Shown one piece after another: positions 5,004 to 33,492 of a stretch of DNA of 64,000 nt. The position numbers and the translations under genes are program-made. The notes under the pieces were generated by a model, which saw only the letters and a program-made list of their open reading frames with translations, did not search any database and was not told the origin of the DNA. Source of the stretch: an uncultured Thiotrichales bacterium (GTDB taxonomy: Bacteria > Pseudomonadota > Gammaproteobacteria > UBA4575); contig CAZAOO010000013.1 in NCBI GenBank assembly GCA_964486815.1, positions 9,965 through 73,964 on the forward strand, given 5' to 3'. Within the stretch, counting starts at the first letter, position 1. The number at the start of each line of letters is the position of its first letter.

Positions 5004-5083
5004 CCAAGCAAGAAAGTTGATTGGTACTCTTGCCGGTATATTTACCATTATATTTTAAATAATTTTAATCAGCTGATCTTGCT

Positions 5084-5968: not shown

Positions 5969-5995
5969 TTGCAGCAATTATAGACACTAAAAAAT

Positions 5996-6070
5996 TGGGC
6001 CGTCGCCAAGTGGTAAGGCACCGGGTTTTGATCCCGGCATTCGCAGGTTCGAATCCTGCCGGCCCAGCCA
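5996..6070 (+). tRNA. tRNA-Gln (UUG)
   Basis: Cloverleaf: acceptor tgggccg/cggccca, anticodon loop ttTTGat, discriminator G plus CCA. Close to E. coli tRNA-Gln. Confidence 0.85.
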
Positions 6071-6118
6071 ATTTCTCGTCATTCTAAATGACGTTTTAAA
6101 ACTAAAGACATTAATACT

Positions 6119-7093: not shown

Positions 7094-7152
7094 GGTATAT
7101 GGGCGAGTAAGTGCTTAGTAGCAGAGAATAAGAGAAAGTTTGGAGTAATAGA

Positions 7153-7842: not shown

Positions 7843-7871
7843 TTTATTCCCTTTAGTGTCTCAGCACACAT

Positions 7872-8453: not shown

Positions 8454-8484
8454 CTAGCGTCAAAATTCAGAGTAAGTAACAGCT

Positions 8485-9576
8485 ATGGGATTTAAATGTG
8501 GAATTGTAGGCTTGCCTAATGTGGGTAAATCGACTTTATTTAACGCCTTAACGGCTGCAGAAATTGCAGCTGAGAACTACCCGTTTTGCACGATCGATCC
8601 TAATGTGGGCATCGTTCCAGTGCCAGATGTACGTTTGCAAAAGCTCGCGAGCATTGAGAGCTCAAAAAAAATCATACCTACAACCATCGAGTTTGTAGAT
8701 ATCGCAGGCTTGGTTGCAGGCGCCTCGAAAGGTGAGGGTTTAGGTAATCAATTTTTGGGACACATACGTGAAACCGATGCGGTTGCGCACGTAGTGAGAT
8801 GTTTTGATGATGAAAATATCATTCATGTAGATGGCAAGGTTGATCCATTGTCAGATTTAGAAACGATCTATACTGAACTTATTTTATCGGACCTGGAATC
8901 GGTTGATAAAGCAATTGCTAGAGTGGAACGTGTCGCAAAATCTGGAAATAAAGAATCGGTAGCACAATTAGATTTATATAAGAAATTAAAACAGCATTTG
9001 GAAAATGAAGAGCTAGCCTTTACATACTCGGTAAGTAAAGAGCAGATGCCATTAATTCGCGAATTACAATTGATAACCGGTAAGCCAGCTTTATATATTG
9101 CGAATGTTGCTGAAGATGGTTTTGAAAATAATGAACATTTAAAAAAGCTTGAAGAAATTGCAAACAAGCGATCAATTCAAGTGATTCCGGTATGCGCACA
9201 AATTGAGGCCGAGATCGCACAACTAGATGCTGATGAGCAACAAGACTATTTATCTGAATTGGGTTTAAAAGAGCCTGGCTTGAATCGTGTTATTCGTGTT
9301 GGATACGAGCTATTGGGCTTGCAGACATTCTTCACAGTAGGCCCAAAAGAAGCCAGGGCCTGGACCGTATCAAAAGGAGCTACTGCCCCAAAAGCTGCCG
9401 GAAAGATTCACACAGATTTTGAAAAAGGCTTTATACGTGCTGAAGTGGTTGCCTATCAGGATTATGTAGATGGCAATGGTGAGTCTGGAGCAAAAGATGC
9501 AGGAAAGTGGCGCCTTGAGGGTAAAGAATACCTAATGAATGAAGGAGACGTGGTACATTTCAGGTTTAATGTTTAG
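8485..9576 (+). CDS. ychF: ribosome-binding ATPase YchF
   Basis: 363 aa. G1 motif [15 protein letters not shown]-domain C-terminus. Downstream of pth. Confidence 0.92.
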
Positions 9577-9819
9577 ATCTTTTGTAATGCATTTCAGGTT
9601 CTAACATATAGAATCTGGAATAGCTATAAAGCTCATTGCCGTTCACTTTAAGCTTCTATGTGTAGCGAGTTTGACCTGAAACTACCCCATTCGTTGATTA
9701 ATTTAGATTAAATATCTAGATCTGGATCTGTGAATTGTAGTATTAAGTTCGGTAGAATTGACACTTGGCCTGGTGTTTTATAAGGTCCGTCATCCAAAAT
9801 CAAATATGGCATCAAATAT

Positions 9820-9896
9820 GGCTATGTAGCTCAGCTGGTTAGAGCACAGCATTCATAATGCTGGGGTCGTTGGTTCAAATCCAACCATAGCCACCA
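9820..9896 (+). tRNA. tRNA-Met (CAU), intact, with encoded CCA
   Basis: ggctatgtagctcagctggttagagcacagcattCATaatgctggggtcgttggttcaaatccaaccatagccacca. Full cloverleaf. Accessory DNA begins immediately downstream. Confidence 0.85.
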
Positions 9897-10032
9897 TTTT
9901 CTTATTTAAGTAATTGTTTTTTGAAATGCATTGGGCGATCACAACAAACTATTACAAAAAATTTTAAACTAAGTACAATTGAGCACTATAATTCAGTGCA
10001 ATAGTCAGGCTAATTTCAAACTGATTAAAATC

Positions 10033-10098
10033 AATCGAGTCTGACCCCATTGATTCTCCAAATCGAGTCTGACCCCATTGATTCTGACCATTGATTCC
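10033..10098. repeat. two tandem 25-nt direct repeats (aatcgagtctgaccccattgattct) plus a partial third (gaccattgattcc)
   Basis: Read directly. Copy 1 at 10033-10057, copy 2 at 10061-10085, partial at 10086-10098. About 140 nt downstream of tRNA-Met at the island boundary. Confidence 0.8.
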
Positions 10099-10175
10099 TT
10101 AATTAATCTGTCCGTTTTTTTGTTGCAACCTCAGACCTCTTTTATTGAATTCACCTCTTAATTCAGTCAAACATT

Positions 10176-12380
10176 TTACATTTTAGGTATAGGGTTAGTA
10201 TCAGAAAATCCGCTTCTTATATGCAAATCTCTTTGAGGGAATGGAATTTCAATTTCATACTTGTGAAGTGCAGATTCAATTTCCCAGTTATATAGTGCTC
10301 TCCATGAGCCTGGCGTTGCATGGTTGCCTAATTTATTTACAACCCAAACAATTAATTCAAAATTTAAACTACTGTCGCCAAATCCAACGAGCCATACTTG
10401 TGGGCGTCTTTTGGCGCCGTCATCATAGGTGACTTCAACTTTTCTGGCTGCTTCTAGACCGGCTTTTTCAACTATAGCTTTATCCGTTCCATAGGCGACA
10501 CCAAAAGGTACATGGATGCGAAACATCGGCTCATTCATTGTGTAATTAACTACTTTTGCAGTGACTAACTCTGAATTAGGAACAATAATATCAAGGTTAT
10601 CTAAGGTAGTTATTACCGTGCTTCTTACATTTATGCCTTTCACAATCCCATTCATGCCCGAATCTAGTTGGACAAAGTCTCCTACCTTTATATTCTGTTC
10701 AAATAAAACAATGATTCCAGATACAAAGTTGTTAACAATAGATTGAAGTCCGAATCCGATACCTACACTTAATGCACCCGCTACTATAGCGAGGTTGGTA
10801 AAATTTAAACCAATAGAAGCGAGTGCTAATATAATTCCAATTATAATAATTATGTAATGTGATAGTCTGCCTAGGGTATAGAAAACAGGAGATGTGCGGC
10901 CATCATTGGGGCCACTTATTCGAGTGATGATTTTCCGTACTAACCTTGAAATGATATAAGCAACCAGAATGACAATTAATGCACGTAAAATATCGGATAA
11001 CGTTACCGGTACATCACCAATTCTAAATAAGCTTTTCTCAAATATTTTGTTTGTGCTTCTCCATAGTTCACTAAAAGTATAGGAGCTATCTGAACGAAGT
11101 TTAAATAGTGGGCCCTGTGTTTTAGTTAGTTTGCCTTGAACAATGGTATTGAAGAAATTTAAATCAGCGAGGGCGTTATCCAGTTTTTGTAATGCTAGCG
11201 CAATCCCTCTGACATTTTCGTTGCGATCTTTAGCTGACTGCTCTGTATTTTCAAGGTCGTTTGCGTTACCTGCGCCCAAGTTAGTTTCAATGAGAGTGTT
11301 AATTTCTTTCATTAAGGATAAATGCCACTCATTGCTTTTTGTTGAAGCGTCTTTTAAAAATGAGTCATTAATTTTATACTGTTCAACTAACTCATCGCTG
11401 GGGTATTTTGGGTCCTGGAGTGAAAGAAGTATTATTGATTTTTTTCCTTGCAAATGATTTAGTATTGCTTCCTCGCTTGTAGATTGAATTTTCGCCAATA
11501 AATATTTTTGTTTTAGTAAATTAGATTTCAAATACCCCGCTAAGTCTTCTTCAACGTTCTCTAAGGATAAGCTCTGGGCTCCCAAAAAATTCTTCTGGGC
11601 AGATTTTAAAATAGATAGCTGTTTATCTATTTCTTTTTCAATAGTATTAAGTTCATCCTCATTGATAGCTAGATTAGATTGTGCAAAATCAATTTCTTGT
11701 TTAAGCTTTTCAATTCTAGTGTTTTGGCGTTCAAGCAACTCTTTTTGAATCGGTTCTTTCTGAATTGAAACAAGCCAAGCAATTCGATTTGCTATAATTT
11801 CAAGACCTGCGGTTAGTTTTTCCTGGTTTGCCGCATCAATTTTTTTGTAAGATGCGTTTAATGTATCAATTTTACCTGCTAATGCTTTGGAAGCCCTTTG
11901 ATTTTCTTTAAAGGCAGGTAATTCAGTTTCATAAATAGACTCTAATTCACGCAGTGATCTATTCAGATTTAGTATTTCATCCAATGAGTATGCTTCTTTT
12001 TTAAAAGTAGCCTTTTTAGGTTTTTTCTTTGTGCTGGTTTTCTTGGCATCTGCAAGTGCTTTTAAACTTGACTTTATTCGAGTGATATATTCGTCTGATT
12101 TTTCTTTGTGCTTTTCTCCTACAGAATTAGACAGTTTGTTTAGATTTGTGATGAACGTATTTGCTTTTATGCTTAACTGTTCTTCCGAGTCTTCAAAATA
12201 TTCCCACCAATTAGATTGTAGATTTAATGGATTAGGTTCTAACTCAATTCTAGGTTGCTTATCTTCTTTTACTGTATTATCAAGTATCGTACCCAGTACT
12301 TCAGTTTGGGCCCATAGTGCCTGGGTTGTAAGCACTATGATAAATGCAGAAATTAGTAAACTGCCAAGCCATCGAATCAT
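10176..12380 (-). CDS. MscS-family mechanosensitive channel with long N-terminal coiled-coil periplasmic domain
   Basis: 734 aa. N-terminal signal, a long charged coiled-coil region, then multi-TM and an MscS beta-domain (…IVPNSELVTAKVVNYT…). Confidence 0.75.
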   Translation of the reverse strand: MIRWLGSLLISAFIIVLTTQALWAQTEVLGTILDNTVKEDKQPRIELEPNPLNLQSNWWEYFEDSEEQLSIKANTFITNLNKLSNSVGEKHKEKSDEYITRIKSSLKALADAKKTSTKKKPKKATFKKEAYSLDEILNLNRSLRELESIYETELPAFKENQRASKALAGKIDTLNASYKKIDAANQEKLTAGLEIIANRIAWLVSIQKEPIQKELLERQNTRIEKLKQEIDFAQSNLAINEDELNTIEKEIDKQLSILKSAQKNFLGAQSLSLENVEEDLAGYLKSNLLKQKYLLAKIQSTSEEAILNHLQGKKSIILLSLQDPKYPSDELVEQYKINDSFLKDASTKSNEWHLSLMKEINTLIETNLGAGNANDLENTEQSAKDRNENVRGIALALQKLDNALADLNFFNTIVQGKLTKTQGPLFKLRSDSSYTFSELWRSTNKIFEKSLFRIGDVPVTLSDILRALIVILVAYIISRLVRKIITRISGPNDGRTSPVFYTLGRLSHYIIIIIGIILALASIGLNFTNLAIVAGALSVGIGFGLQSIVNNFVSGIIVLFEQNIKVGDFVQLDSGMNGIVKGINVRSTVITTLDNLDIIVPNSELVTAKVVNYTMNEPMFRIHVPFGVAYGTDKAIVEKAGLEAARKVEVTYDDGAKRRPQVWLVGFGDSSLNFELIVWVVNKLGNHATPGSWRALYNWEIESALHKYEIEIPFPQRDLHIRSGFSDTNPIPKM

Positions 12381-13339
12381 TTCATTTTCCTTAAAAAAAT
12401 GATAAGCGCGACTTCAATTAATACCATCACTCCCAAGACATAAAAATATCCGTTTTTAGCTTGTAATTCTGGTATATGCTCAAAATTCATGCCATATAAA
12501 CCGGTTATGAAAGCGAGTGGAACAAATAAAACCGTAAAGATGGTCAATGTTTTTACGATTTTATTTACACGATGAGATGTAATAGATAGGTAGCTATTCA
12601 CCAAGTCTGTGGTGAGTTGTTGATGCATAAGCGACAAGCTTGCGCTTCGTTCCATGTGCTCATATACATCATTAAATTCATGTAGGCTTTTTTGTATGAA
12701 GCTATTTGTTGAAGTGTGTAAAAGTGAGCTAAATACACCTTTATGATAAGTCATTGCCCTATGTATTTTTCTCAATGCGCTATTATATTTAGATAGCTCT
12801 GCCAGATGTGAGTCATTTAGGTCAGTGGCCAACTGGTTTTCTAGCTCTTCAAGACGTTCCTCTAACTTTTTCAAAGTATTGAAATAATGATCAGCCACAT
12901 TTCTAGAAATATGGTATGCAATGTTACTAGTTCCATTAGAGCAGTCTATTATATTATTTAACAAACAGTTCCATATGTTGTCTATACACTCATGAGTATT
13001 AATTTTTCGAGTCACAATATAGCGATCGGAAACAAACATGGCTAACTGTGAATAAGTAAACTCATTTTTTATCTCGCTTGAGTCAATAGTTCTGAGTAGC
13101 ATTAAAAAGTGATTGTTAAAAAACTCTATCTTAGGGGGGTGACGGCGCCTTGTGGCATCGGCCATTTCTAAGGCGCTAAAGCCAAATGTATTGGCAATTA
13201 ATTCATCTTCTTTGTTTGTAGGATTAGAAATATTAACCCAAATTAAGGAGTTGTCTTGATCTTTCCAGTTATTTATTAGGTCAAACTGACCTTTTCCTAT
13301 AAGTCCAGAATCTTTTGTAAATATAGCTACTTCTATCAT
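12377..13339 (-). CDS. CorA-family divalent cation transporter
   Basis: 320 aa. Two C-terminal TM helices with the signature YGMNF. 4-nt overlap with the MscS gene, so they form an operon. Confidence 0.8.
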   Translation of the reverse strand: MIEVAIFTKDSGLIGKGQFDLINNWKDQDNSLIWVNISNPTNKEDELIANTFGFSALEMADATRRRHPPKIEFFNNHFLMLLRTIDSSEIKNEFTYSQLAMFVSDRYIVTRKINTHECIDNIWNCLLNNIIDCSNGTSNIAYHISRNVADHYFNTLKKLEERLEELENQLATDLNDSHLAELSKYNSALRKIHRAMTYHKGVFSSLLHTSTNSFIQKSLHEFNDVYEHMERSASLSLMHQQLTTDLVNSYLSITSHRVNKIVKTLTIFTVLFVPLAFITGLYGMNFEHIPELQAKNGYFYVLGVMVLIEVALIIFLRKMK

Positions 13340-13523
13340 TTGCTAAGTGTGCATCAAGATGTGCTGTATGATCAAATTATATGTATATGCTATTGACTAA
13401 ATGAAGCCAAATTATCTAGGTAATACAACTTTTATACAATGTATTTTCAACAGTGTTATGTCTAGCTTAAATGTTGATAGATGAGAATTTGAACTTTTAT
13501 TGTCAATGCATAGCGATTAAAAC

Positions 13524-13982
13524 ATGCCTAAATCTACCGAGTTAAGTGTAATTGGCTGGCGTGAATGGGTGTCGCTACCTGATTTAGATATAGACCAAAT
13601 TAAGCGCAAAGTAGACACAGGTGCTAAAACTTCTGCATTACATGCTTAATTTATCGAACCATTTAATATATCAGGAGTTGACTATGTGCGGTTTGGATTG
13701 CACCCATTACAAAAAAGTTCCAAGGGAGAGGTGATTTGTACCAGCAAGGTCGTCGATCAGCACGCAGTAACTGATTCGGGCGGCCACCGTGAAACTAGAT
13801 ATGTTATCTTCACACGAATAAAACTATCCCAGCATACTATTGATGCTGAGATTACACTTACCGATCGTGATAGCATGACGTTTAGAATGCTGCTTGGGCG
13901 TAATGCAATAAAAAATCAGTTTATAGTCCATCCTGCATGTTCGTATTTAATTGGTAAAAAGAAAAAGACAGGTCCAAAATGA
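13524..13982 (+). pseudogene. RimK-associated ATP-dependent zinc protease (retropepsin-like) interrupted by an in-frame TAA at 13647-13649
   Basis: ATG 13524 gives [45 protein letters not shown] follows, and the same frame continues FIEPFNISGVDYVRFGLHP… to 13982. The stop at 13982 overlaps the rimK start, as in intact homologous pairs. Confidence 0.65.
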
Positions 13983-14887
13983 AGATAGCGTTATTAAGTA
14001 AAGGTAGTACAAGGTTATATTCTAATAAACGCATCATTGAAGCTGCATTAGAACGAGGCCATGAAATCGATGTTATAAATACAACTGACTGCTATATGGA
14101 CATAGCAACAGACAAGCCAAGCGTTCATTTAAAAGGCAAAGAACTGCAAAAATATGATGCAGTCATACCACGTATTGGAGCATCTATCACTTTTTATGGA
14201 GCTGCGGTATTGAGGCAGTTTGAGATGATGGGAACCTACCCACTCAATGAATCAGTAGCAATAACACGGTCACGTGACAAGTTGCGTTCTCTACAAATAT
14301 TATCTCGTGCAGGGATAGGTCTGCCATTAACAGGCTTTGCAAATTCAACAAAAAACACAAAAGACCTAATTAACTTGGTAAAGGGTGCTCCCTTAGTCGT
14401 CAAATTAATTGAAGGTACTCAAGGGAAAGGCATCGTACTGGCAGAAACTTACAAAGCTGCTGAAGCCATAATTGATGCCTTTCGACAACTTGGTGCTAAT
14501 TTTTTAGTTCAGGAATTTGTCAAGGAGGCTGGTGGGGCAGATATTCGTTGCCTGGTTATCGGAGATAAAGTTGTAGCAGCAATGATGCGGCAGGCAGCTC
14601 AAGGCGAATTCCGTTCTAACTTACATCGAGGCGGTACAGCTTCACTTGTAAAGTTAACGCCTAAAGAACGGGCAACTGCAACACATGCTGCGAGAAAGAT
14701 GGGGTTAAATGTGGCTGGAGTAGATCTTTTGCGGTCCAGCCATGGGCCAGTCGTAATAGAGGTAAATTCTTCGCCAGGTCTTGAAGGAGTAGAAAAGGCT
14801 ACAGGGAAAGATGTTGCGGGAATGATGATAGATTTTATAGTTAAACATGCAAAACCACACAAGACGAAAACTCGTGGTAAGGGCTAA
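13979..14887 (+). CDS. rimK: ribosomal protein S6--L-glutamate ligase (ATP-grasp)
   Basis: 302 aa. [24 protein letters not shown]…, ATP-grasp motifs. Confidence 0.88.
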
Positions 14888-14932
14888 TCAAAATAGTTTT
14901 ATGACTCTTCTTATATTAAGGATGATTGTGCT

Positions 14933-15945
14933 GTGATTGAAAAAATCAGCATTGCTAGCAATGATATAAAACCTGCAACAAGCTCTGTACTACAACTTGA
15001 GCTTCCTCCGTTATATACCAATACGCCTTTGACCATGCCTGTACATGTGATTCGAGGCAAGAATGATGGTCCTAAGTTATTTGTCAGTGCTGCAATTCAT
15101 GGTGATGAACTAAATGGTGTCGAGATTGTTAGAAGATTAATTAAAAAGATATCAGTAAAACGACTTACTGGTACTTTGATCGCTGTACCTGCAGTAAATA
15201 TATATGGAATGTTACAACATTCACGCTATCTGCCTGATCGCGAGATCTAAATTGCTGTTCCCCGGGTTCTTTGCAAGGCTCATTGGCTGGGCGGTTGGCA
15301 TATTTGTTTATGAATGAGATCGTATCCAACTGTGCCTGTGGCATCGATCTTCATACTGCTGCACTGAATCGTAGCAATCTCCCCCAAATACGCGCAGATT
15401 TAAGCGATGAAAAAATTTCAGGATTAGCTACTGCCTTTGGTGTTCCAGTAATTGTTAACTCAAAACTTCGTGATGGTTCTTTGCGTGAATCTACCACAGC
15501 TAAGAAAGTGCATGTACTTGTGTCCGAGGCGGGTGAAGCTATGCGTTTCAGTGAATCAGGGATCAAAGCGGGCCTAACTGGAATATTAAATGTGATGAGG
15601 TATGTGAATATGATTCCGCCTCCAACAAAAGGCGTACGGACTAATAGTGTTCCACAAGTAGCTCAATCAAGTAACTGGATGCGTGCTCCTGTAAGTGGTA
15701 TTTTCAGAACCAGAACTCGTTTGGGAAAAGAAATTAAAAAAGGACAGATCATCGGATATATAGAAGATGTATGTGATTACCATAATCAAGAAGAAATTGT
15801 TGCGCCTGATGATGGCATCATCATAGGTCAGTCGCATATCCCTCTGGTTTATGAGGGTGACCCTTTGTTTCACGTTGCTTATTTTAAGAATGTGAAGAAA
15901 GCAGTGCAAAGCCTGGATGACTTTGAAACCGAACAGACTACGTAA
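14933..15945 (+). pseudogene. succinylglutamate desuccinylase/aspartoacylase (AstE/AspA) family protein split by a frameshift near 15240
   Basis: Frame A reads …YLPDREI* (stop at 15248). Frame -1 reads RDLNCCSPGSLQGSLAGRLAYLFMNEI…, which restores the family DLNRxFPG-type motif. The two listed ORFs (105 aa and 224 aa) are halves of one gene. Confidence 0.7.
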
Positions 15946-16040
15946 ATATGTGTTAAAGATTTTCACTTTTCAATAATTGCAATTAATTTAATGCAGTCAA
16001 CTTCTATATATGGAAAATATAATTTAAAATTAATAGTCAA

Positions 16041-16085
16041 TGTTCATAATGCTGGGTCGGTAGTTCAAGCCCACCCATAGCCACC
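16041..16085 (+). repeat. degenerate copy of the 3' half of tRNA-Met (att-like island junction)
   Basis: tgttcataatgctgggtcggtagttcaagcccacccatagccacc aligns with anticodon loop through acceptor 3' strand of the intact tRNA-Met at 9820-9896. Confidence 0.75.
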
Positions 16086-16255
16086 GCACTTGCGACTGGG
16101 TATTATGCGCAAGTTAGCTGTGTAGAAAGGCACACATATAGTTAGTAAAGCACAACAAGTTCGTCATAAGTCCGTCAGTAAAATTAATATTACCGTTATT
16201 ATTTCCTAAATATTACATTTGTTAGGAAGGAACATTTACCAGAGGTTGCGCCTGC

Positions 16256-16846
16256 TTATTCTTCTTCATAGATATCTAATTTTACTTCTTTCATGCTATA
16301 GGAAGCGGGTCCATATTCGCTATTGATACTTTCTGTTGTCATGGTGCCTTCAATCCAGACTGCATTATCTAACCACTTTTGATCAAGTGGTTTGGTCGAG
16401 TTTACGTATACCATTTGATTAGATGGAGGTGGTGGCACATGTATGCATGCACCAAAGTAAGGAGCTAATAAGAACTCATTAAAGATACCATTATCAAAAT
16501 CATACTCTAAAGGCACAATAAAACCCGCAAGTTTTATATATTGACCATTTAACTCAGGCACAATAGGTGCTGAGCGTAACGATACCAGTAATTCATCATA
16601 GGCTTGTTGCGCTTTTTCGGAATCATCTTCGATATCGTCAAAACCAAGAGCGTCACCAAAATTATCAAATATTCCGCTCAATGTTGATTGCTGTTTTTGT
16701 TGCAAATTTTCAAAATAACCTTCAGGTGCAAGGTCATCCCAGGTCAATTCTTTAGCTTCCTTCGCTAGTAATGTTGAGCTTATTATAGATACGAAAACCA
16801 GAAAATTCAGCGCAAGAGAAAAATATTTATTAGAGAAATAATTCAT
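16256..16846 (-). CDS. DUF3299-like periplasmic protein (ZrgD-like)
   Basis: 196 aa with signal peptide. Last gene of the Zur-box operon, directly downstream of the ABC permease. Confidence 0.55.
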   Translation of the reverse strand: MNYFSNKYFSLALNFLVFVSIISSTLLAKEAKELTWDDLAPEGYFENLQQKQQSTLSGIFDNFGDALGFDDIEDDSEKAQQAYDELLVSLRSAPIVPELNGQYIKLAGFIVPLEYDFDNGIFNEFLLAPYFGACIHVPPPPSNQMVYVNSTKPLDQKWLDNAVWIEGTMTTESINSEYGPASYSMKEVKLDIYEEE

Positions 16847-18111
16847 GTGCGTATGGTCAGCCCGTCTTGTAAAGTTTTCCTATAAGCACTGATCGCAGGG
16901 AAGATTGCGGCGATCAGTCCGCCTGTAATAATGGTTAACAGTATGAGCCATTGGAGCTTGGTTGGTGCATGAAGTTCAATGTTTAATCCATAGGTATTAA
17001 ACAAAATAGGGTTAATCAAAGCCAGCGAAGTGTATAGAATTATTAAGCCTAAAAGAATGCCAAGTATTACCAATATTTCTGATTCAATTACCATTAGTGA
17101 AAATATTGTCTTTGGTGAAGCACCAACTGAACGAAGGACCGCAATTTCACGGCGACGCTCATTTAGGTTGGTTAAAATAATGGCTAACATCCCTAGTAAG
17201 CCGGTCACAACAACAAGTGCTGCGATAATCAACATTACTTTTTCAATAGCGCCTACAACTTTCCATAGTTCCATGAGAGCAATACCTGGAATAATTGCGA
17301 GTAGAGGCTCAGATTTATAGTTGTTGATTCCACGTTGAATGGAGAAGATGTCTTGTTTATTTTTAAGTCCAAGTAAAAATGCTGTTATGGATTTGATTTG
17401 AAGTCTAGAATCATCTTCTTTTAAGTTGTCCGTCTGAATTGACTGCTGATTAGGTACGCCTTGTTCCCAACCTATATGCACGGCTTCTAATCCTTTTAAT
17501 GATATTAATACAGATCGATCTATGGGGGTCCCAGTTGGTTTTAATATGCCTGTTACAGTAAAAGGTAAGTTTTTATGTTCAGCAAAACTCACGTTCCCCA
17601 TTCCATGTGCCAGGATGATTTTATCACCAAGTTGATAATTAAGGGTTTTTGCAACTTCTGCACCAAGGACTGTATCAAAGATCCCTGAAAATTCTTCTCC
17701 GCTTAAGAAGGATAACTTATAACGTTTTCCATAATGATAATATTGAAATATATCTCTTGTCGTGCCAACGACTCTATGTCCTTTGTGAGAATCACCCAGA
17801 GAAATAGGGATGCTCCAATTTACACGTGGATGGTTGATGATTTTGTTATAGCTTTCCCATGAAACGTTATTCGTTGCATTTCCTAAATGAAAAACACTAT
17901 ATAGCAATAATTGCGCAGAACCGCTTCGCGATCCCACAATCAAATCTGTACCACTAATGGTATTGGCAAATTTTTCTTTGGCTTGTACACGTATGATATC
18001 TACACCTAGAAGTAACACAACACTGATTGCTAGTGAGAAGATGGCTAAACCAATAGAAAGCTTACGAAATCGAAGGCTTTTTAAAGCTAGTTGGATAATT
18101 TTGATGTTCAT
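16843..18111 (-). CDS. ABC transporter permease, MacB/LolC/FtsX type (ZrgC-like)
   Basis: 422 aa. N-terminal TM, large periplasmic domain, C-terminal FtsX-like TM bundle. Overlaps ATPase gene by 4 nt. Confidence 0.8.
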   Translation of the reverse strand: MNIKIIQLALKSLRFRKLSIGLAIFSLAISVVLLLGVDIIRVQAKEKFANTISGTDLIVGSRSGSAQLLLYSVFHLGNATNNVSWESYNKIINHPRVNWSIPISLGDSHKGHRVVGTTRDIFQYYHYGKRYKLSFLSGEEFSGIFDTVLGAEVAKTLNYQLGDKIILAHGMGNVSFAEHKNLPFTVTGILKPTGTPIDRSVLISLKGLEAVHIGWEQGVPNQQSIQTDNLKEDDSRLQIKSITAFLLGLKNKQDIFSIQRGINNYKSEPLLAIIPGIALMELWKVVGAIEKVMLIIAALVVVTGLLGMLAIILTNLNERRREIAVLRSVGASPKTIFSLMVIESEILVILGILLGLIILYTSLALINPILFNTYGLNIELHAPTKLQWLILLTIITGGLIAAIFPAISAYRKTLQDGLTIRT

Positions 18112-18812
18112 GCGTTTTCGACTGAGCTAAAGTCATTTAACGAAACAGAGCGATCGAATAAACTTGCTAATGTAAGGTCATGGCTGACAAATAATATCGC
18201 ACTATTACTTTTCATTGCTTCTTCAAATAATAGTTCTAAAAAGCCCTGTTTGGCATCTTGATCTAATGCCGAGGTGGGTTCATCTGCAATGATAATTTCA
18301 GGAGAGCCGATCAAAGCACGCGCTGCTGCTACACGTTGTTGTTGGCCAGTACTGAGCTCGGTGACATTTTTATAGATAATATCTTTGTCTTTTAAACCAA
18401 GTGCGGCTAATAACCTTAACGCTTCTTCCATAGTATTGCGTTTTTGTATAGATAACATTTCTCGTCTGCGCCATGAAAATAGACAGGGTAGAGTGATATT
18501 CTCTAAAACGTTGAGATAGGGTATTAAATTGAATTGTTGAAAAATTATACCCATGTGATCAGCTCGATACTGATCGCGTAATTTTTGTTTTTGGGAGAAT
18601 AAATTTTTTCCTAAAACAGTAATTTCTCCATGGGTAGGTTTGAGAACTCCTGAAATCAGATTTAATAAAGTTGTTTTCCCGCAACCACTTGGCCCGTGAA
18701 TAAATAACTTTTCTGCTTTTTTAAGAATCAGTGATTCAATATTGATTAAAGGCTTTTGGGTATTCTCCCAACAAAATTCAATATTTGATAACTGAATACA
18801 GGTTTGAGACAT
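18108..18812 (-). CDS. ABC transporter ATP-binding protein (ZrgB-like)
   Basis: 234 aa. Walker A GPSGCGKTT, signature LSTGQQQRVAAARAL, Walker B IIIADEPTSALD. Confidence 0.88.
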   Translation of the reverse strand: MSQTCIQLSNIEFCWENTQKPLINIESLILKKAEKLFIHGPSGCGKTTLLNLISGVLKPTHGEITVLGKNLFSQKQKLRDQYRADHMGIIFQQFNLIPYLNVLENITLPCLFSWRRREMLSIQKRNTMEEALRLLAALGLKDKDIIYKNVTELSTGQQQRVAAARALIGSPEIIIADEPTSALDQDAKQGFLELLFEEAMKSNSAILFVSHDLTLASLFDRSVSLNDFSSVENA

Positions 18813-18833
18813 AGAATAATTGATTTGATTTTG

Positions 18834-19460
18834 TTATTTTAATGATAGCGCACGTGTATTTGGTGTTGCAGTAAATAGATTTTGGCTCTCATTAGAAACA
18901 AATTGTACTTCAATCTTCTCAATTGTGGGGAAGTGATCAAATATTATATATTCAATTGATTCTGGGTTGTCGTGTGAGCAGCTGTATTTATAATGAATGG
19001 ATACATCGCTATGTTCTCCATCATTGTGTGATTCATCGTGATGATGTTCGTCTGAACCATGACCATCATGACCATCATGACCATCATGACCATCATTCTC
19101 TTTATTAACTAAATCAAAAATTCTACTTTCAAGGCTGACAGAATCAAGTTTGCATGCATTAGTTGGGTATATAGTAACAATGTTATCGTCACTTTCTAGT
19201 ATGGTCTTAGCATTTGTAATGCTTTTACGCTCTTCATTATTAAGTGGTTCATGCTCAAATCCAAATACGTCTATGGAGGGTAGTAATATCTCTAAGCTGA
19301 GTGTTTCGTCAATAAACGTAATTTGAGAAGTGGCCTGACCATGTACATGTGCTGCATGTTCCTCATGATCTGTTTCCAAGTGATGGTCTTCACCCGCATA
19401 TAAACTGATGCAGGAGGTTGTCATAAAAACTGCAATTAAATATTTAAGTATTTTCATCAT
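18834..19460 (-). CDS. His-rich periplasmic metal-binding protein (ZrgA / DUF2796-like)
   Basis: 208 aa. Signal peptide. Repeated DGHDGHDGHDGHGSDEHHHDESH and HEEHAAHVHG segments. Confidence 0.65.
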   Translation of the reverse strand: MMKILKYLIAVFMTTSCISLYAGEDHHLETDHEEHAAHVHGQATSQITFIDETLSLEILLPSIDVFGFEHEPLNNEERKSITNAKTILESDDNIVTIYPTNACKLDSVSLESRIFDLVNKENDGHDGHDGHDGHGSDEHHHDESHNDGEHSDVSIHYKYSCSHDNPESIEYIIFDHFPTIEKIEVQFVSNESQNLFTATPNTRALSLK

Positions 19461-19501
19461 GGTTGATATCTTTGGTTTATATGCAAGAAGTCATTTGGTT
19501 T

Positions 19502-19924
19502 CTAATTAGCAGATTTGACTTTGCATTTTCTTGTAGCTATTAGGTTAAACATGTGGCCTGACGCGTGAATTATACCTCCAAAGATGGTCAGCCAGGTTTC
19601 TGCTGTGTGAGGTATTGTGTGGTTTGCAATTAATGTTCCTGCATAAACTGCAGTAAATACTAATATCGTCAAACCTAATAATGAGATTATGGTGGGCGAA
19701 ATATTTCTATGAAAACGATATCCGGATATCGTGGCAAGAATACTCACTGGCAAAATAAATATTAGAATAAACTGGTGAAACCAGAATTCATGTAACGCAT
19801 GTCCATAGTGTATCGTAGTAGATATTAAGGGGATTAGGCTGGCAACAATTGGGAAAATCGCACAGTGAATAGCACATATACCTGATAGAGAAATTGCTAA
19901 ATGATCAAATTTATCTTGTAACAT
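19502..19924 (-). CDS. MerC-like small integral membrane protein (Cys/His motif CAIHCAIFP)
   Basis: 140 aa, 4 predicted TM helices, Cys-x-x-His-Cys motif. Paralog of the next gene. Confidence 0.5.
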   Translation of the reverse strand: MLQDKFDHLAISLSGICAIHCAIFPIVASLIPLISTTIHYGHALHEFWFHQFILIFILPVSILATISGYRFHRNISPTIISLLGLTILVFTAVYAGTLIANHTIPHTAETWLTIFGGIIHASGHMFNLIATRKCKVKSAN

Positions 19925-19999
19925 AATTATTATTAGTAAACTGAAAACAGTACTTGATGATGAAAAAAGTAACGAACGCCACTTCTATGTACTGCTTTG

Positions 20000-20398
20000 T
20001 TACTGATATGCACAGGTTTTATGATATTGGCATAAACGATAATTCCATATGTGAGAAGCAGCAATAATCGCTGCGCCGATGACTGTGAATGCTTTTTCTA
20101 AACTTTCTCCTAATAAATCGTGACCAAAAAGGGCAACCAGGCACAAAGTTAACAAGCCGATGCCGCCTAGCATTAATACTGGGTAGTGCTTGTGATTTTT
20201 GCAGCCCATTGTTAGTGCATAGGCGGAAATCGGCAAAATAGCAATTATCATCCATACATGAAATATTTCATCATTTAATGGCAAGGCTGCAATAGATGGG
20301 AGTAAAACAGCTAAAAGAGGTAGAGCTAAGCAGTGAATTGTGCATAGTAAAGATAAACTAATAGCTGTTTTATCTGTTATGAATTGAGTATTAACCAT
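20000..20398 (-). CDS. MerC-like small integral membrane protein (CTIHCLALP)
   Basis: 132 aa. Same architecture and motif as 19502-19924. Confidence 0.5.
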   Translation of the reverse strand: MVNTQFITDKTAISLSLLCTIHCLALPLLAVLLPSIAALPLNDEIFHVWMIIAILPISAYALTMGCKNHKHYPVLMLGGIGLLTLCLVALFGHDLLGESLEKAFTVIGAAIIAASHIWNYRLCQYHKTCAYQ

Positions 20399-20402
20399 TT
20401 AA

Positions 20403-22430
20403 TTATTCAAACTCAAGTGAGACACCTAGAGTAGCGCCTATACTAGGTAGCACAACACGGTCTTTTGTGAAGGAAGTATGTTGGCGTGCATCTTCATCCA
20501 ATAAATTTTCACCTCTAAGAAATACTTTTATGTCTGAATCACCGGCATAAAATGTCTTCGTTAAACTTGCGTTCAACATGGTGTAACTATCGGTATCGGT
20601 TTCAAGATCAGCTTCGTTGTTTGAGTCATCTACAAAGACAAGATCAACGGTTCCACTCCAAGTGTTACGAAAGCCCTCTAAGCCCAAGCCTAAGCGCCCA
20701 GTGGGAATACGCGGCACATCACCTGCATCGCTATCGTCAAACTCTGCTCGCACATAATCACCAAAAATGCGGCCACGCAGATCATATTTGCTATTGCTAA
20801 CAAGTTGCTTCACAAATTCTACTTCAATGCCGTAAAACTCCGCATCTTCATTTTCATATACACCGGCAAGTAACTCACCATCAAGCTCGAACATGCCTTC
20901 TTCATCTGTACGATCGGCGATGCCGTCATTATTGGCATCCAAAGACGCGAGATAAATGAAATCATCAATGCGGTTGTAGTAGGTATTAACCGCCCAGCTG
21001 TAACTGCTTTTATTTTGTTCTAGACCAATTTCAAAATTGTAGGACGTCTCCTCATCAATATTGGTAGAGCCGGTTTCAAATGTGAGGGTCGCTAGATGCG
21101 GGCCGTCAGCATATAAAGCGGTTTCTTGTGGTGCACGTTCAGTACGGGCAACAAATACATTCAATTGCATATCATTAGCCAATTGGCGTTGCGCACCGAA
21201 TGAAACTGAGTACACGCTAAAGTCTTCATCATCACCATTGTCAGGCTCAAATTCATCGCGATCAAAGCGTAGACCACCTTCTAAATCCCATAGCTCGTTG
21301 TGATAATGGCTTATTGCAAAGATTCCAAAGCGTTCTTGATCCAGTGGCGGAATAAATGCTTCTTCGCCTTCTGCAGCAAACTCGCGATCGTTATATTGCA
21401 CACCAAAGGCATTTTTCCAATCGTCATTGATGGTATGAATAAACTCGAGTCTTGATTCTAGCTCTTCATTATCAAATGCCGTAGCCACTTCTCCATCTTC
21501 TTCAATTTCAAAATGGCGGTAGTTGTTGTAAGCGGAGCGTAATGATATTTTTTCAATGTTGTTGAAGGGGTTATACAATTCTGCAAGCATGTCATAGCGA
21601 TATTGTTTTAAATCGATACGAATATCACCCTCTTCGGCTCCTGGCACACCAAAATTGGTGTCAAATCGATTATAGCCAAAGCCGATCATGCCTTTATCAG
21701 AAATATAACTTGCACCAAAACCATGGTTATCGGTTTCTACATCACTATTAGCTAATCGCCCTTTGTTTTCAGGTTCTTCTTCATTTGCGAAACCATCGAT
21801 ATCATAATCATTGGTATCGCGGGTTAAGCCATCGAAATGCCATGCAAAGTTATTAGTTGCGCCATTAAGTTCTAAAGCAGCTGTTTCACCGTCTGATACC
21901 GTGTCATGCTCCACTGCGGCTTTTAACTCAAATGGGCCTGTTTGTAGTGATTTTGGAATGCGATTATTAATGATATTAACAACACCACCAATGGCACCCG
22001 GCCCAAAACGCAATGTCGAAGGCCCACGCAAGATTTCAACTTGATTGGCAAAGTAGGGTTCAATCGACACAGGATGATCTTCACTAAGGCTGGAAACATC
22101 TAATGCGCCAATACCGTTTTCAAGTACCCGCACTCGGTTGCTACCTAGACCACGAATAATGGGGCGACTGGCACCGGGCGCAAAGGAAGTAGCGTTCACG
22201 CCTAGTTCATATTTAACAGTTTCACCAATTGAATTGGATTTTTTACGTTCCAATTCTTCACCGCTGAGGATGGTGACAGATTGAGCGAAATCATCTGGTT
22301 TTTCACCAGGAAACCATTTTGATTCAATTACAATTTCGGGTAAATCAATGGTTCCTGTTACTGATTGGTCATCTGCATACAGGTTAAAGCTTGAGAAACA
22401 TAGTAAACATATAGCTACACGGGCGTACAT
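20403..22430 (-). CDS. TonB-dependent outer-membrane receptor (Zur-regulon, ZnuD-like)
   Basis: TonB box-like N-terminus, plug and barrel motifs, C-terminal …LGVSLEFE with terminal aromatic. Likely start MYARVAICLL… at 22430 with GGAG upstream; the ORF track extends to a TTG at 22442. Confidence 0.85.
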   Translation of the reverse strand: MYARVAICLLCFSSFNLYADDQSVTGTIDLPEIVIESKWFPGEKPDDFAQSVTILSGEELERKKSNSIGETVKYELGVNATSFAPGASRPIIRGLGSNRVRVLENGIGALDVSSLSEDHPVSIEPYFANQVEILRGPSTLRFGPGAIGGVVNIINNRIPKSLQTGPFELKAAVEHDTVSDGETAALELNGATNNFAWHFDGLTRDTNDYDIDGFANEEEPENKGRLANSDVETDNHGFGASYISDKGMIGFGYNRFDTNFGVPGAEEGDIRIDLKQYRYDMLAELYNPFNNIEKISLRSAYNNYRHFEIEEDGEVATAFDNEELESRLEFIHTINDDWKNAFGVQYNDREFAAEGEEAFIPPLDQERFGIFAISHYHNELWDLEGGLRFDRDEFEPDNGDDEDFSVYSVSFGAQRQLANDMQLNVFVARTERAPQETALYADGPHLATLTFETGSTNIDEETSYNFEIGLEQNKSSYSWAVNTYYNRIDDFIYLASLDANNDGIADRTDEEGMFELDGELLAGVYENEDAEFYGIEVEFVKQLVSNSKYDLRGRIFGDYVRAEFDDSDAGDVPRIPTGRLGLGLEGFRNTWSGTVDLVFVDDSNNEADLETDTDSYTMLNASLTKTFYAGDSDIKVFLRGENLLDEDARQHTSFTKDRVVLPSIGATLGVSLEFE

Positions 22431-22486
22431 TATTAACTCCAATATAAAACCCTATAATTAGGGTATGAAAACTAGGGTATGAAAAA

Positions 22487-22813
22487 TTATGAATTTTTAA
22501 GAGGATTAATTACGTAAGGAGGTGCGCGTGCTTTAGTGAAGTACTGATAGGTCGTGAATGTATGGTTTGTTGAAAATGCTAATGTTTCTTGTACATAAAA
22601 GTGTTGTATTAGTGGTAAATAATTATCAAGAGATGAATCAGAAAATTTTAATAGTACGAGACAGATTTCGCATTCGTTAGAGCCGGGTTCATTGTCAATG
22701 TGTTCATATCCATGCTGCGCATTTAGCCAAAGGGATATCAAGAGTATTGATGCAATTAGCGATCTACATATAGAAGACTTATGCATGTATTTAGGTGAAA
22801 ATGAGTCAAGCAT
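22487..22813 (-). CDS. small secreted Cys-containing protein (probable true start MHKSS… at ~22786)
   Basis: 108 aa in the ORF track. An internal Met gives a signal peptide MHKSSICRSLIASILLISLWLNA. CEIC motif. The Zur box abuts the annotated ATG. Confidence 0.45.
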   Translation of the reverse strand: MLDSFSPKYMHKSSICRSLIASILLISLWLNAQHGYEHIDNEPGSNECEICLVLLKFSDSSLDNYLPLIQHFYVQETLAFSTNHTFTTYQYFTKARAPPYVINPLKNS

Positions 22814-22815
22814 TG

Positions 22816-22836
22816 TAATGTTATATTATAACACTA
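22816..22836. promoter_or_regulatory. Zur box (taatGTTATAtTATAACacta)
   Basis: 6-1-6 perfect palindrome GTTATA-T-TATAAC with AAT/ATT-like flanks. Matches the gammaproteobacterial Zur operator consensus. Lies immediately upstream of the 8-gene minus-strand operon. Confidence 0.7.
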
Positions 22837-22949
22837 ATTTCTTGAAGTAAACAGCAATCGTCCATTTTGTATTATGAGCGAGAATACAATCTGAATTCAC
22901 TTGGGGTTTTGGTCGGTCGAAACAATGCTTCACACAGGGCTTTAATCTG

Positions 22950-22997
22950 GCATTCATAATGTTGGGGTCGGTGATTCAAGTCCACCCATAGCCACCA
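22950..22997 (+). repeat. second degenerate copy of the tRNA-Met 3' half
   Basis: gcattcataatgttggggtcggtgattcaagtccacccatagccacca. Its T-arm is closer to the copy at 16041-16085 than to the intact gene. Confidence 0.75.
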
Positions 22998-23049
22998 TCC
23001 TAGTATATTCACATTCTGATCACTCATAGAAATTAATACCTGTTAGATC

Positions 23050-23727
23050 TGATGTTTTCCGCTTCTGGTTGGTTATTGCCTGAGTACATTAATTGGTTTG
23101 CAATATAACGATAAAGGATTTTCTACGGTCGGAGAAGAGGCGTTTATTTCGGCAGTTGAGTCTGATCGTTATGGGTTGTTTGTGATAACACAAAAAGAGT
23201 TCAATAAATGGAATATTGAATTTAGTGTGCGTGCGGAGCAGGTCGACTATGATCCCCAGTTTTTTTGCTGATGAAGATTTTGATGTCTATTCGCTATCGT
23301 TTGGCCTCATTCGAAAGCTACCCAATGACTTGAAAATACGCTTTAACCTGAGCCGATTCGAACGTCCACCAGAAGAATCAGCCTGTTTGCAGAAGGACCG
23401 CACTTGGCTACACTTACCTTCGAGCGTGGCAACACAACTATTGATGAAGAGGTTTTTAACAACTTGGAGATTGGGTTAAGTCAAGAAAATCGCAATACAA
23501 ACTGGCAGTTAAATGCATTCTATAATCGAGTGGATAATTTTATTTTTCTATCATCAGTGGATGAGAATAATGATGGCTTAGCAAACCGTGTAGATGAAGA
23601 AGGCATGTTTGAACTCGATGGAGAGTTGCTCCTGGGTGACTTTGTTAATGAAGATGTGGAATTTAATGCCGAACGTGTTCCACTACCAGGTATTGGCGCC
23701 AAATTTGGAATTTCTGTGAAATACTAG
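23050..23727 (+). pseudogene. decayed C-terminal remnant of a paralogous TonB-dependent receptor
   Basis: Three frames piece together …AEQVDYDPQFFADEDFDVYSLSFGLIRKL… / …LATLTFERGNTTIDEE…MFELDGELLLGDF…GISVKY. These align with the last ~220 aa of the receptor at 20403-22430. No N-terminus, several frameshifts. Confidence 0.7.
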
Positions 23728-23758
23728 GCATGATGAAGGAGCGCGCTGCAAATTCAAT

Positions 23759-23908
23759 ATGGATTGGATAAGTGTTGTTTTAGGATCGTTATTGATTGCA
23801 ACCTTAATTGCTTATTTTGCAGGCGTGTTTCCTTATCCGTTCGGGTGGCTTATTTTATTAGCTTTATTAATGGCTAGATTGGGTATATTGCGAATTAAAA
23901 ATAAATAA
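23759..23908 (+). CDS. possible 49-aa small membrane protein
   Basis: ATG-initiated ORF MDWISVVLGSLLIATLIAYFAGVFPYPFGWLILLALLMARLGILRIKNK, two hydrophobic helices. No clear SD. Below the ORF-track size cutoff. Confidence 0.25.
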   Translation: MDWISVVLGSLLIATLIAYFAGVFPYPFGWLILLALLMARLGILRIKNK

Positions 23909-23981
23909 AAATTTCTATTATATTGTTAGCTTGACGGGTTGAATGCAATATTATTGAGTTTATTTTATTGTGGGAAATAAT

Positions 23982-25193
23982 TTAATTTGTCACTGCTAAT
24001 TTTTGCTTTGCACGATGATCTTTCGTTCCAGGAATGTATTTCGCGATACGTGGCACCTCATGCGCCAGTATGCATATATCTTTAATACCGTTTTTTTCTG
24101 CCTTGGATTCCACTGCGTCAGTTACTGAATCAGCTGTAGTTTGATTGGTAATGCAGCGAATGGTGGCATACTCATTATTAATATGTGCATGAGCTAATTC
24201 TGGGTGTTCGTGTTCATCTTCATACATAGATATGAAGCGTGAGTAACTTACATTTAATCCTGGGGCACCTGCATTAAGCATTAGATCCATCAGGTTTTGA
24301 GATTGGTCGCGATTCACAACGGTTGAGAAACAAACTTGATTAGTTAGCTCTTGTTTGTTCCGTTTACCAATAGCTAGTCCAGTGCCTTTGCCTTGATCAC
24401 CTACATCAAACACAGTTTGGTCACGCCAGTGTGTATGGCCCGTTAGGTGGTCGATTGCATGTATAATTTGTTGTGTATTAGCAGTGTAGTGTGGGTTTGC
24501 AATTCTACTTGGTAGATTAAACATACCCTTGTCAATTGGTAATCGATACATGAATCCACGACCGGGCAGATGAAATTCACCCGCTTTTTCCATAGCGGTA
24601 AAGATAGCTTCAACATCCGAGTTGTCTGCGAGTACCATTAAAATCTCTTGTTCACTGTCTTTAGTGATGCGAAGCCAGCCTAGTCGGTCGCGCAATCCTT
24701 TCCCTTCAGCAAAGTAAACAACTGGACCATGTGCGCCAGCATTGATTGCGGCTTTGGCAATATGGTCGCTTAATTTATGGCTAACGCTACAAAATATTGC
24801 ACTTAGGTTTCCAGAAAGCTTGTCCGAGTCAGTTGTAGTATTTAATTGTTCTTTAGTATGAAGGTTTTGAAAATCAGTACCGATGTAAGAACTTGTACAC
24901 GGTGTGCTAAACACTGCGCCTGTAGACTGCATGTCCAGCTTTCCTTCAAGAATGACCGTGTTAATAACACGATCGACATCATGTGCAGGCACGACCATAT
25001 GGAGTAACGTTTTTGACGGGCTAATGGGCGGCACCCAGGATTTCCACCAATGGTCACGAAGCACTGTACCACGTGCTTTTGAGACTAGAATATCGGTTAC
25101 TTCGTTGGTTGTCAGGGTTTCTATTACCGCATTTGCAGAGGGTACTGGAAGTGCTGCGGTAATGAGTGAGATATGGTGGTTGGTATTAAACAT
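23982..25193 (-). CDS. protein composed of tandem P-II (GlnB)-like domains (at least 3, probably 4)
   Basis: 403 aa. Repeated beta-alpha-beta…beta-alpha-beta modules, e.g. ISLITAALPVPSANAVIETL…LVSKARGTVL…LLHMVVPAHDVDRVINTVILEGK…GAVFSTP and LSAIFCSV…EILMVLADNSDVEAIFTAMEKAGE…GRGFMYRLPI. Overlaps the downstream DUF1538-like gene. Confidence 0.55.
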   Translation of the reverse strand: MFNTNHHISLITAALPVPSANAVIETLTTNEVTDILVSKARGTVLRDHWWKSWVPPISPSKTLLHMVVPAHDVDRVINTVILEGKLDMQSTGAVFSTPCTSSYIGTDFQNLHTKEQLNTTTDSDKLSGNLSAIFCSVSHKLSDHIAKAAINAGAHGPVVYFAEGKGLRDRLGWLRITKDSEQEILMVLADNSDVEAIFTAMEKAGEFHLPGRGFMYRLPIDKGMFNLPSRIANPHYTANTQQIIHAIDHLTGHTHWRDQTVFDVGDQGKGTGLAIGKRNKQELTNQVCFSTVVNRDQSQNLMDLMLNAGAPGLNVSYSRFISMYEDEHEHPELAHAHINNEYATIRCITNQTTADSVTDAVESKAEKNGIKDICILAHEVPRIAKYIPGTKDHRAKQKLAVTN

Positions 25194-31939: not shown

Positions 31940-31956
31940 CTTCTTAACTAGGTTAA

Positions 31957-33482: not shown

Positions 33483-33492
33483 AAGTAATCAG

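Follow-up and report, generated by a model that had tools for sequence, protein, structure and literature searches.

Extra tRNA-Met 3' halves behind ychF mark a probable old, accreted metal-homeostasis island array without integrase in an uncultured stromatolite gammaproteobacterium

Described tRNA-borne islands and the ychF-tRNA-Met locus

In Klebsiella, an attachment (att) class running from 'anticodon loop to CCA' has been reported for the tRNA-Met gene met1 together with group II integrases (bioRxiv 10.1101/2020.11.02.365908, where the sublocation scheme of Williams 2002 is given in summary). In the islands of Prochlorococcus, successive elements are separated only by partial tRNA, the older ones being pushed outward and decaying, and a tycheposon is defined there by a tyrosine (or serine) recombinase and a replication module (bioRxiv 10.1101/2020.12.28.424599). 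Cis-mobilizable elements (CIMEs) are decayed elements which keep attL and attR and have lost their integration and transfer genes (PMC5704250). Here we analyse a 64-kb stretch of DNA (the window) from an uncultured gammaproteobacterium, taken from an 84-kb contig of a stromatolite metagenome (ENA ERZ909567, k127_200435), in which a tRNA-Met gene downstream of ychF is followed by two copies of its 3' half, the direct repeats DR1 and DR2, which delimit module 1 (between tRNA-Met and DR1) and module 2 (between DR1 and DR2). The features that frame the locus are as follows.

8485-9576, + strand: ychF, the conserved left anchor (TIGR00092, 508 bits)
9820-9896, + strand: intact elongator-type tRNA-Met(CAT), the equivalent of attL (ARAGORN; Rfam 74.7 bits)
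16043-16086, + strand: DR1, TTCATAATGCTGGGTCGGTAGTTCAAGCCCACCCATAGCCACCG, decayed tRNA-Met 3' half from the anticodon loop to CCG, putative att scar between modules 1 and 2
22950-22997, + strand: DR2, GCATTCATAATGTTGGGGTCGGTGATTCAAGTCCACCCATAGCCACCA, tRNA-Met 3' half beginning with 3 nt of the anticodon stem and ending at CCA, putative outermost att scar
23982-25193, - strand: P-II-domain protein (Pfam match), with which the conserved right flank begins and collinearity with the relative L091 resumes

The arrangement agrees with the anticodon-loop-to-CCA class in that the repeat spans the anticodon loop, the variable loop, the T arm, the acceptor 3' strand and CCA (about 45 nt) and that the island lies downstream of the tRNA; it differs from those islands in its imperfect repeats and in the lack of an integrase that could be classified. 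Like the tycheposon islands of Prochlorococcus, it stands beside a tRNA gene, contains extra partial tRNAs and carries nutrient cargo that includes zinc homeostasis, but it has neither recombinase nor replication module, belongs to another host lineage, and its material corresponds to the 'non-element' remainder of such islands. The CIMEs of the ICESt1/ICESt3 family in Streptococcus thermophilus also lie at the target gene's 3' end, head to tail, separated by att sites and deprived of integration and transfer genes, and newer arrivals in their arrays enter at the gene-proximal site, as we propose for the window. Unlike CIMEs, the window holds no remnants of ICEs (integrative and conjugative elements) or IMEs (integrative and mobilizable elements), the target is the tRNA-Met anticodon loop, the att scars are decayed, and the likeness is one read from sequence. 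Among the marks of a tRNA island, the location 3' of a tRNA, att repeats and variable presence were found here, and an integrase and atypical composition were not.

Considering these likenesses and the evidence given below, we think that the locus is probably an old, accreted, integrase-less (CIME-like) array of metal-homeostasis islands, consisting of two cargo-only modules with decayed att scars. The tRNA-Met downstream of ychF would serve as the attachment site for integrative elements of the tyrosine-recombinase type, with the crossover in the anticodon loop; each integration would rebuild the tRNA from the element's own 3' half and push the previous 3' half, with all behind it, outward. 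Two such rounds would yield the order tRNA-Met, module 1, DR1, module 2, DR2, truncated receptor gene and conserved flank, and the recombination and transfer genes would all have been lost later, leaving cargo-only modules with att scars, a CIME-like state in which tandem accretion ends. The making of the repeats by integrases and the order of the events are what we infer from the arrangement. The locus reveals no new mechanism; this is an ordinary repeated-insertion scar pattern.

The tRNA-Met repeats and the variable site behind ychF

The tRNA genes were called with ARAGORN and scored against Rfam, and shuffled sequences gave the chance expectations and the folding z-scores; the loci of relatives compared with the window carry L-numbers (L085-L095 and others), L090 and L095 lying on one 2.67-Mb contig. 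The original prediction, made by reading the DNA without database searches, had recognised the intact tRNA-Met and its two 3'-half copies, and all three were confirmed, ARAGORN and Rfam finding one tRNA-Met(CAT), the intact gene. The copies are 44-48 nt long and on the same strand as the intact gene, from which DR1 is distinguished by a 1-nt deletion and the change of CCA to CCG. Over 45 positions, DR2 and the intact gene differ at 5, DR1 and DR2 at 6, and DR1 and the intact gene at 7; the repeats are imperfect (84-91% identity). The claim that the copies are more like each other than like the intact gene is only partly right, DR2 being nearer to the intact gene by these counts, but the copies do share three states against it, namely the T-stem pair 50:64, which is G:C and not T:A, and a G instead of an A in the T loop. 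Among the sequences compared, the intact tRNA-Met of L088 is the nearest to both copies (3 and 5 differences). A degenerate 44-nt pattern hits both the intact gene and DR2, where shuffles give an expectation of 0.00 matches, and no further tRNA-Met 3'-half copy with up to 14 mismatches per 45 nt was found in the window. The partial copies were rejected as functional RNAs, their folding z of -0.70 and +0.82 being no better than that of shuffled sequence, against -2.76 for the intact tRNA. Furthermore, the exact 45-nt att sequences of the DR type and the intact type gave no match in the viral contigs scanned, which yielded no candidate element bearing attP.

That the repeats are a chance match or a product of metagenome misassembly is hardly credible. 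The source is indeed a metagenomic contig, but the zero expectation in shuffles speaks against chance, and repeats at most 91% identical over 45 nt offer too little to mislead an assembly at k=127. Moreover, L002, an independent assembly from another run, agrees with the window at 99.99% over 6003-19576, DR1 included, and the same gene order was found independently in L093. Assemblies of the same population from two further runs and a second assembly of the original run cover parts of the window at 99.99-100% identity.

In L093 there is a third tRNA-Met 3'-half fragment (ATCATAATGCTGGGGTC-GTGGTTCAAGTCCACCTATTGCCACCA), again with its start at the anticodon loop and at a distance of 107 nt from the stop codon of the module 1 channel gene mscK. 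The 5' starts of DR1, DR2 and this fragment fall within about 4 nt of each other at the anticodon loop, and all three end at the CCA terminus. The shared start and the extension to CCA match the 'anticodon loop to CCA' att class of tyrosine recombinases. In several Gammaproteobacteria 2-4 tRNA-Met genes stand downstream of ychF, and one might take the partial copies for remnants of an ancestral tandem tRNA-Met array, such as the Met-Leu-Gln arrays of Vibrio and Alteromonas, whose 5' halves have been deleted. We regard this as very improbable, since random truncation would not make three independent fragments start so close together, the tRNA-Met after ychF is single in 7 of 7 clade members inspected, and the copies are spaced by 6-7 kb of protein-coding genes and not by tRNA spacers.

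Within the clade, positions 1-49 of tRNA-Met are invariant except for one D-loop difference in L090, and the first two T-stem pairs vary among relatives with perfect compensation. The T stem is GTTGG/CCAAC in the window (whole T arm GTTGG/TTCAAAT/CCAAC), L091 and L092, ATTGG/CCAAT in L090, CGTGG/CCACG in L085-L087 and GGTGG/CCACC in L088, and it is to this last type that DR1, DR2 and the L093 fragment all belong. Such types are compatible with 3' halves swapped by integrating elements and with a DR2 that is a displaced native end, but they are not proof of it. The intact 3' half of the window and the displaced fragment of L093 have homologous flanks and different T-stem types, which indicates that the arm also changes in situ or via integration-excision cycles. 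The earlier suggestion that one repeat is ancestral and the other island-derived is thus plausible and, with a T stem that varies and compensates among relatives, falls short of being provable.

Evidence that something entered at this place comes from the relatives. L091 (YchF 84% identical; 570-kb contig) is collinear with the window over 1-9582 and 23982-33509, the latter being matched in tblastx by L091 12129-21011, and the distance from tRNA-Met to the P-II gene is 0.9 kb in L091, filled by one haem-oxygenase-like gene, against 14 kb in the window. L091 is a near-empty site. Between L086 and L087 the identity is 99.88% along 11,326 bp; it stops 11 nt past the CCA of tRNA-Met, beyond which the two are unrelated. 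The four closest relatives are represented by five contigs, and each of these comes to an end 0.2-0.95 kb past ychF, as is typical of a strain-variable site. In general, the DNA after tRNA-Met differs in every relative, being occupied by an ORF (open reading frame) of phrog_8366 in L085, by RHS toxins and AbiE in L090, and by DUF5677, Rrf2 and cytochrome oxidase genes in L092, while upstream synteny is kept throughout. Taken together, the repeats, the difference between 0.9 and 14 kb and the divergence of L086 from L087 show that the locus is a true att-type integration hotspot. This bears out the site-specific integration hotspot of the original prediction, which had proposed to look for an empty site in related genomes.

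The pair of ychF and tRNA-Met is itself old. The tRNA-Met gene follows ychF in most of about 60 gammaproteobacterial loci, so the adjacency is ancient. In Vibrio, Alteromonas, Rheinheimera and others (L017, L029, L030, L037, L045, L049, L065, L069, L082 and L084), ychF is followed by tRNA arrays of Met-Leu-Gln units, and the single tRNA-Met of the window's clade looks like a reduced form of this ancient arrangement. Among the matches listed from species-representative genomes, the best one to YchF has 67% identity, and the protein search gave many metagenomic relatives with a YchF 80-93% identical. In a neighbour-joining tree of prs-ychF DNA, L090 is the deepest member of the clade and the window is sister to L085.

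Gene content, age and linkage of the two modules

The genes of the two modules, with the repeat that precedes them and the receptor remnant that follows DR2, are listed here.

10033-10085, + strand: two perfect 25-nt direct repeats (AATCGAGTCTGACCCCATTGATTCT) with a 28-nt period and a partial third copy, between tRNA-Met and the MscK stop
10176-12380, - strand: MscK/MscS-family mechanosensitive channel, 734 aa
12377-13339, - strand: CorA Mg/Co transporter (TIGR00383, 190.7 bits)
13524-13982, + strand: RimB-like aspartic peptidase, pseudogene with an in-frame stop at codon 42
13979-14887, + strand: RimK, ribosomal protein S6 glutamate ligase (NF007764, 452.8 bits)
14933-15945, + strand: AstE/AspA-family deacylase, pseudogene with a frameshift near 15241-15271
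16256-18812, - strand: DUF3299 protein, FtsX/MacB-type permease and ABC ATPase (zrg-type transporter)
18834-19460, - strand: ZrgA-like periplasmic zinc protein (NF047873, 109 bits, below the 185-bit cut-off)
19502-20398, - strand: two MerC-family membrane proteins (PF03203, E = 4e-22 and 5e-30)
20403-22442, - strand: ZnuD-like TonB-dependent zinc receptor (NF038289, E = 4e-121, 405.9 bits, below the cut-off of 950)
22487-22813, - strand: 108-aa ORF, first gene of the operon, with a conserved counterpart of 103 aa in L093, upstream of the receptor there
22817-22835, no strand: Zur-box-like palindrome AATGTTATATTATAACACT, located 4 nt upstream of the first start codon in the operon
23095-23727, + strand: decayed 3' part of a second ZnuD-like TonB receptor, beginning about 98 nt past DR2

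The genes found agree with the description in the original prediction, MscS-CorA-RimK in the first segment and a zinc-uptake operon in the second, and RimB, the AstE-like gene and a TonB receptor are pseudogenes, in line with the several that it had noticed. The two segments are not, however, the unrelated and independently acquired islands for which they had been taken. L093 is collinear with the window over 10197-22445, with MscK 68% identical, the other proteins mostly 71-91% and ZrgA lower, and its order is MscK, CorA, an intact RimB, RimK, an intact AstE, a truncated small MscS, DUF3299, permease, ATPase and ZrgA, so that the modules stand contiguous in the same order, with the tRNA-Met fragment bounding the MscK end. 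The flank after that fragment is homologous to the flank after the intact tRNA-Met of the window, and beyond the fragment (L093 12455-12742) lies the 3' end of an apparent RND/CzcA-type efflux gene, a label given from the ORF translation with no family search. The fragment and the gene beyond it together indicate that a further island integrated there and displaced the old 3' half with the whole block of modules 1 and 2. This displacement is what accretion predicts.

In L095, module 1 adjoins tRNA-Gln, ispE, lolB, hemA and prfA, which is the upstream neighbourhood of the window minus prs-L25-pth-ychF-tRNA-Met, and this missing block lies 60 kb away from module 1 on the L090/L095 contig. Module 1 is thus present in the deepest clade member and must be at least as old as much of the clade. 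The comparison of L090 7656-11309 with L095 12169-12418 shows the block relocated from ispE-tRNA-Gln, leaving tRNA-Gln directly beside MscK; the breakpoints right after tRNA-Gln and right after tRNA-Met suggest a rearrangement at tRNA/att sites. A decayed tRNA-Met end between tRNA-Gln and MscK in L095 was considered, and its alignment score is too weak to claim. With module 1 lying in this core neighbourhood of L095 and both modules adjoining in L093, the cargo is, judging from the sequences compared, clade-resident rather than the product of two unrelated recent acquisitions.

Several observations weigh against the accretion of mobile islands. L093 has the truncated small MscS gene at the place of DR1 and no repeat there, which means that DR1 is not a conserved boundary. 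Identities of the window to L095 are 56% for MscK, about 70% for RimK and 68-80% for AstE, comparable to those of the core proteins YchF (84%), HemA (77%) and LolB (60%); with module 1 beside the same core neighbourhood in the deepest relative and a core-like divergence, it could be an ancestral flank and not an element. The GC content is 0.370 in module 1 and 0.381 in module 2 against a window mean of 0.386, which is native and not atypical. DR2 is separated from the conserved flank by about 1 kb, taken up by the decayed receptor and a small ORF. Neither module contains an integrase, an excisionase or a remnant of one, and the role of a recombinase is read from the repeats only. Finally, about 55 other gammaproteobacterial ychF-tRNA-Met loci have no extra 3' halves within 10 kb.

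Some of these observations would fit an account in which the modules are ancestral genes that never were mobile, and DR1 and DR2 are scars of unrelated and wholly deleted elements, which local inversions and deletions have later interleaved with the genes. It has in its favour that in L093 modules 1 and 2 adjoin with no DR1 between them, that module 1 stands beside ispE-tRNA-Gln in L095, that the GC is native, and that local rearrangement is evident in the inversion of the 108-aa ORF with ZnuD, in the truncated receptor near DR2 and in the relocated block of L090. But integration puts the displaced 3' half only distal to the insert, so that a scar between the modules implies that module 1 entered or moved, which is an insertion anyway, and L091 lacks both modules at the site and keeps both flanks. 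We therefore hold this account to be possible but unlikely, and keep to the accreted array. The modules stand side by side in another clade member, the divergence is core-like, the composition is native and three genes are decaying, all of which makes the events old.

The original prediction had also stated that no integrase, excisionase or transposase ORF is present, and this holds: family scans of the ORFs in 9897-23981 gave no Phage_integrase or recombinase match, and the modules have no excisionase or transposase. Of the ORFs in 9897-22949, all but the 108-aa ORF could be assigned to a family, and that one is conserved in L093. The intergenic DNA of this interval totals about 1.1 kb with a largest gap of 279 bp, and with 92% of it coding there is no room for an integrase remnant. 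Moreover, the modules yielded no remnant of a conjugation, relaxase or integrase gene, neither a tycheposon recombinase nor a replication module (primase, helicase, polymerase) was found in the interval, and no integrase domain was seen among the scanned ORFs of at least 150 aa elsewhere in the window.

The same compactness could be turned to another use, namely that the modules are still mobile cargo-only elements on which an integrase encoded elsewhere in the genome, or an incoming one, acts in trans or in cis via the kept att sites. The modules are 92% coding, bounded precisely by att-type repeats and free of recombinase debris, module 1 has the same two ends (MscK 3' and AstE 3') in three genomes with three different right-hand neighbours, the nutrient and metal cargo is like that of cargo-carrying tycheposons (bioRxiv 10.1101/2020.12.28.424599), and cis-mobilisation of CIME-ICE tandems is documented (PMC5704250). 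However, DR1 and DR2 are decayed, with 7 and 5 of 45 positions off the intact site and an indel in DR1; three genes are pseudogenes and the divergence of the modules tracks that of core genes; no near-identical MscK was found in other genetic backgrounds (best match 84%) and no integrase in the scanned ORFs of the 64-kb window; and no polymorphism was found among three assemblies of the same population. We consider continuing mobility doubtful. In its fullest form this reading takes the modules for living cassettes of cargo without integrase, which belong to a tycheposon- or CIME-like system and are shuffled among strains at ychF-tRNA-Met by a recombinase supplied in trans from transient elements; it seems just as improbable. 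If it were true, the shuffled set would comprise module 1, module 2 and the apparent CzcA-type island of L093, and the same att sites would also drive rearrangements such as the relocation of prs-ychF-tRNA-Met in the L090 genome. The islands being 'old and immobilised', as first proposed, agrees better with the three decaying genes, the core-like divergence and the native GC, and we infer the present immobility from these.

The cargo genes, the right flank and what the array means

The MscK of module 1 has rare homologues, with 10 clusters at E<1e-50, and a metagenome scan for it gave only distant matches of at most 36% identity over full length, the patterns used being generic MscS motifs. 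In P0121 (contig s-Dhp7Dt) a Cation_efflux fragment adjoins MscK, and in P0123/L176 MscK is alone, with no tRNA within 182 nt. The two pseudogenes of module 1 are intact in both L093 and L095, RimB with 148-150 aa and the AstE-like protein with 337 aa. Other metal-ion genes lie near module 1 in relatives, namely the apparent CzcA-type gene of L093, the Cation_efflux fragment of P0121, and MgtE with CusB and OEP in L095 1-5700, and the tRNA-Met-linked region may be a flexible metal-homeostasis island in the clade.

The AATCGAGTCTGACCCCATTGATTCT repeats before the MscK stop were seen in the window contig only and are absent from the homologous L093 flank. They may once have been an arm-type site, or may serve as a regulatory repeat; the idea of an arm-type site shared with relatives was rejected, the repeats being confined to the window contig. 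At the same place L095 has a comparable short repeat, GTGTTCCCAT, in two copies.

Module 2 is similar to the ZrgABCDE/ZnuD loci of Vibrio (PMC8248653, PMC9817125) in its ZrgA-like protein, ABC ATPase, FtsX-type permease, DUF3299 protein, ZnuD-like receptor and Zur palindrome; in contrast to those loci, its ZrgA and ZnuD fall short of the NCBIfam equivalog cut-offs, it has two MerC-like genes as insertions and no zur gene lies in the segment. ZrgA and ZnuD of the window accordingly look like relatives of the Vibrio proteins rather than equivalogs. PF10986 matches the ZrgA orthologue of L093, and the ZnuD-like receptor is 82-88% identical in amino acids to the L093 receptor. Inside the zrgA-like gene, at 19058-19102, there is a 9-nt tandem repeat, CATGACCAT, in four 18-nt copies, three of them perfect and overlapping and one at 78%, which presumably encodes a His-rich metal-binding stretch. 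The palindrome AATGTTATATTATAACACT is the sole match in the window to the query palindrome (1 mismatch), and it agrees at 14 of 15 positions with the Zur site TGTTATGTTATAACA of V. cholerae (PMC8248653). The same predicted motif is found in the orthologous intergenic region of L093, so the proposal of the original prediction that Zur controls the zinc operon is carried by a predicted box which is conserved in the relative. The unit of the 108-aa ORF and ZnuD (window 20403-22813 against L093 1-2009) is inverted relative to the zrgA operon, being co-directional in the window, with the two MerC-like genes between, and divergent in L093, where MerC was not seen between; the Zur box stays with the 108-aa gene across the inversion.

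On the right side, the second receptor pseudogene has 42-44% amino-acid identity to ZnuD, is frameshifted, carries an internal deletion and lacks about 330 N-terminal residues, and its C-terminus ends in the typical aromatic residue (VKY*). This boundary implies either a deletion beside the att site or another decayed island of still greater age. In the conserved flank, the DUF1538/UmpAB-like antiporter at 25186-27140 consists of two overlapping ORFs (488 and 163 aa), against a single 647-aa gene in L091; it may be a pseudogene due to a frameshift, or else a natural form with two subunits. A second small replacement is seen further on, where the window has an Exo_endo_phos-like gene at 27451-28188 (like L090 5996-6679) and L091 a patatin gene at 15521-16450.

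The locus is a well-documented case of a tRNA gene that gathers adaptive cargo by repeated integration and then loses the delivery machinery entirely, the cargo here consisting of genes for the transport of magnesium, zinc and other metals and the host being an uncultured gammaproteobacterium of stromatolites. It cautions that cargo enclosed by att scars may have the same age as the clade which carries it. Furthermore, the hotspot accounts for the breaking of the clade's assemblies right after ychF-tRNA-Met, and it marks the place where the strain-variable genes of this clade will be found.

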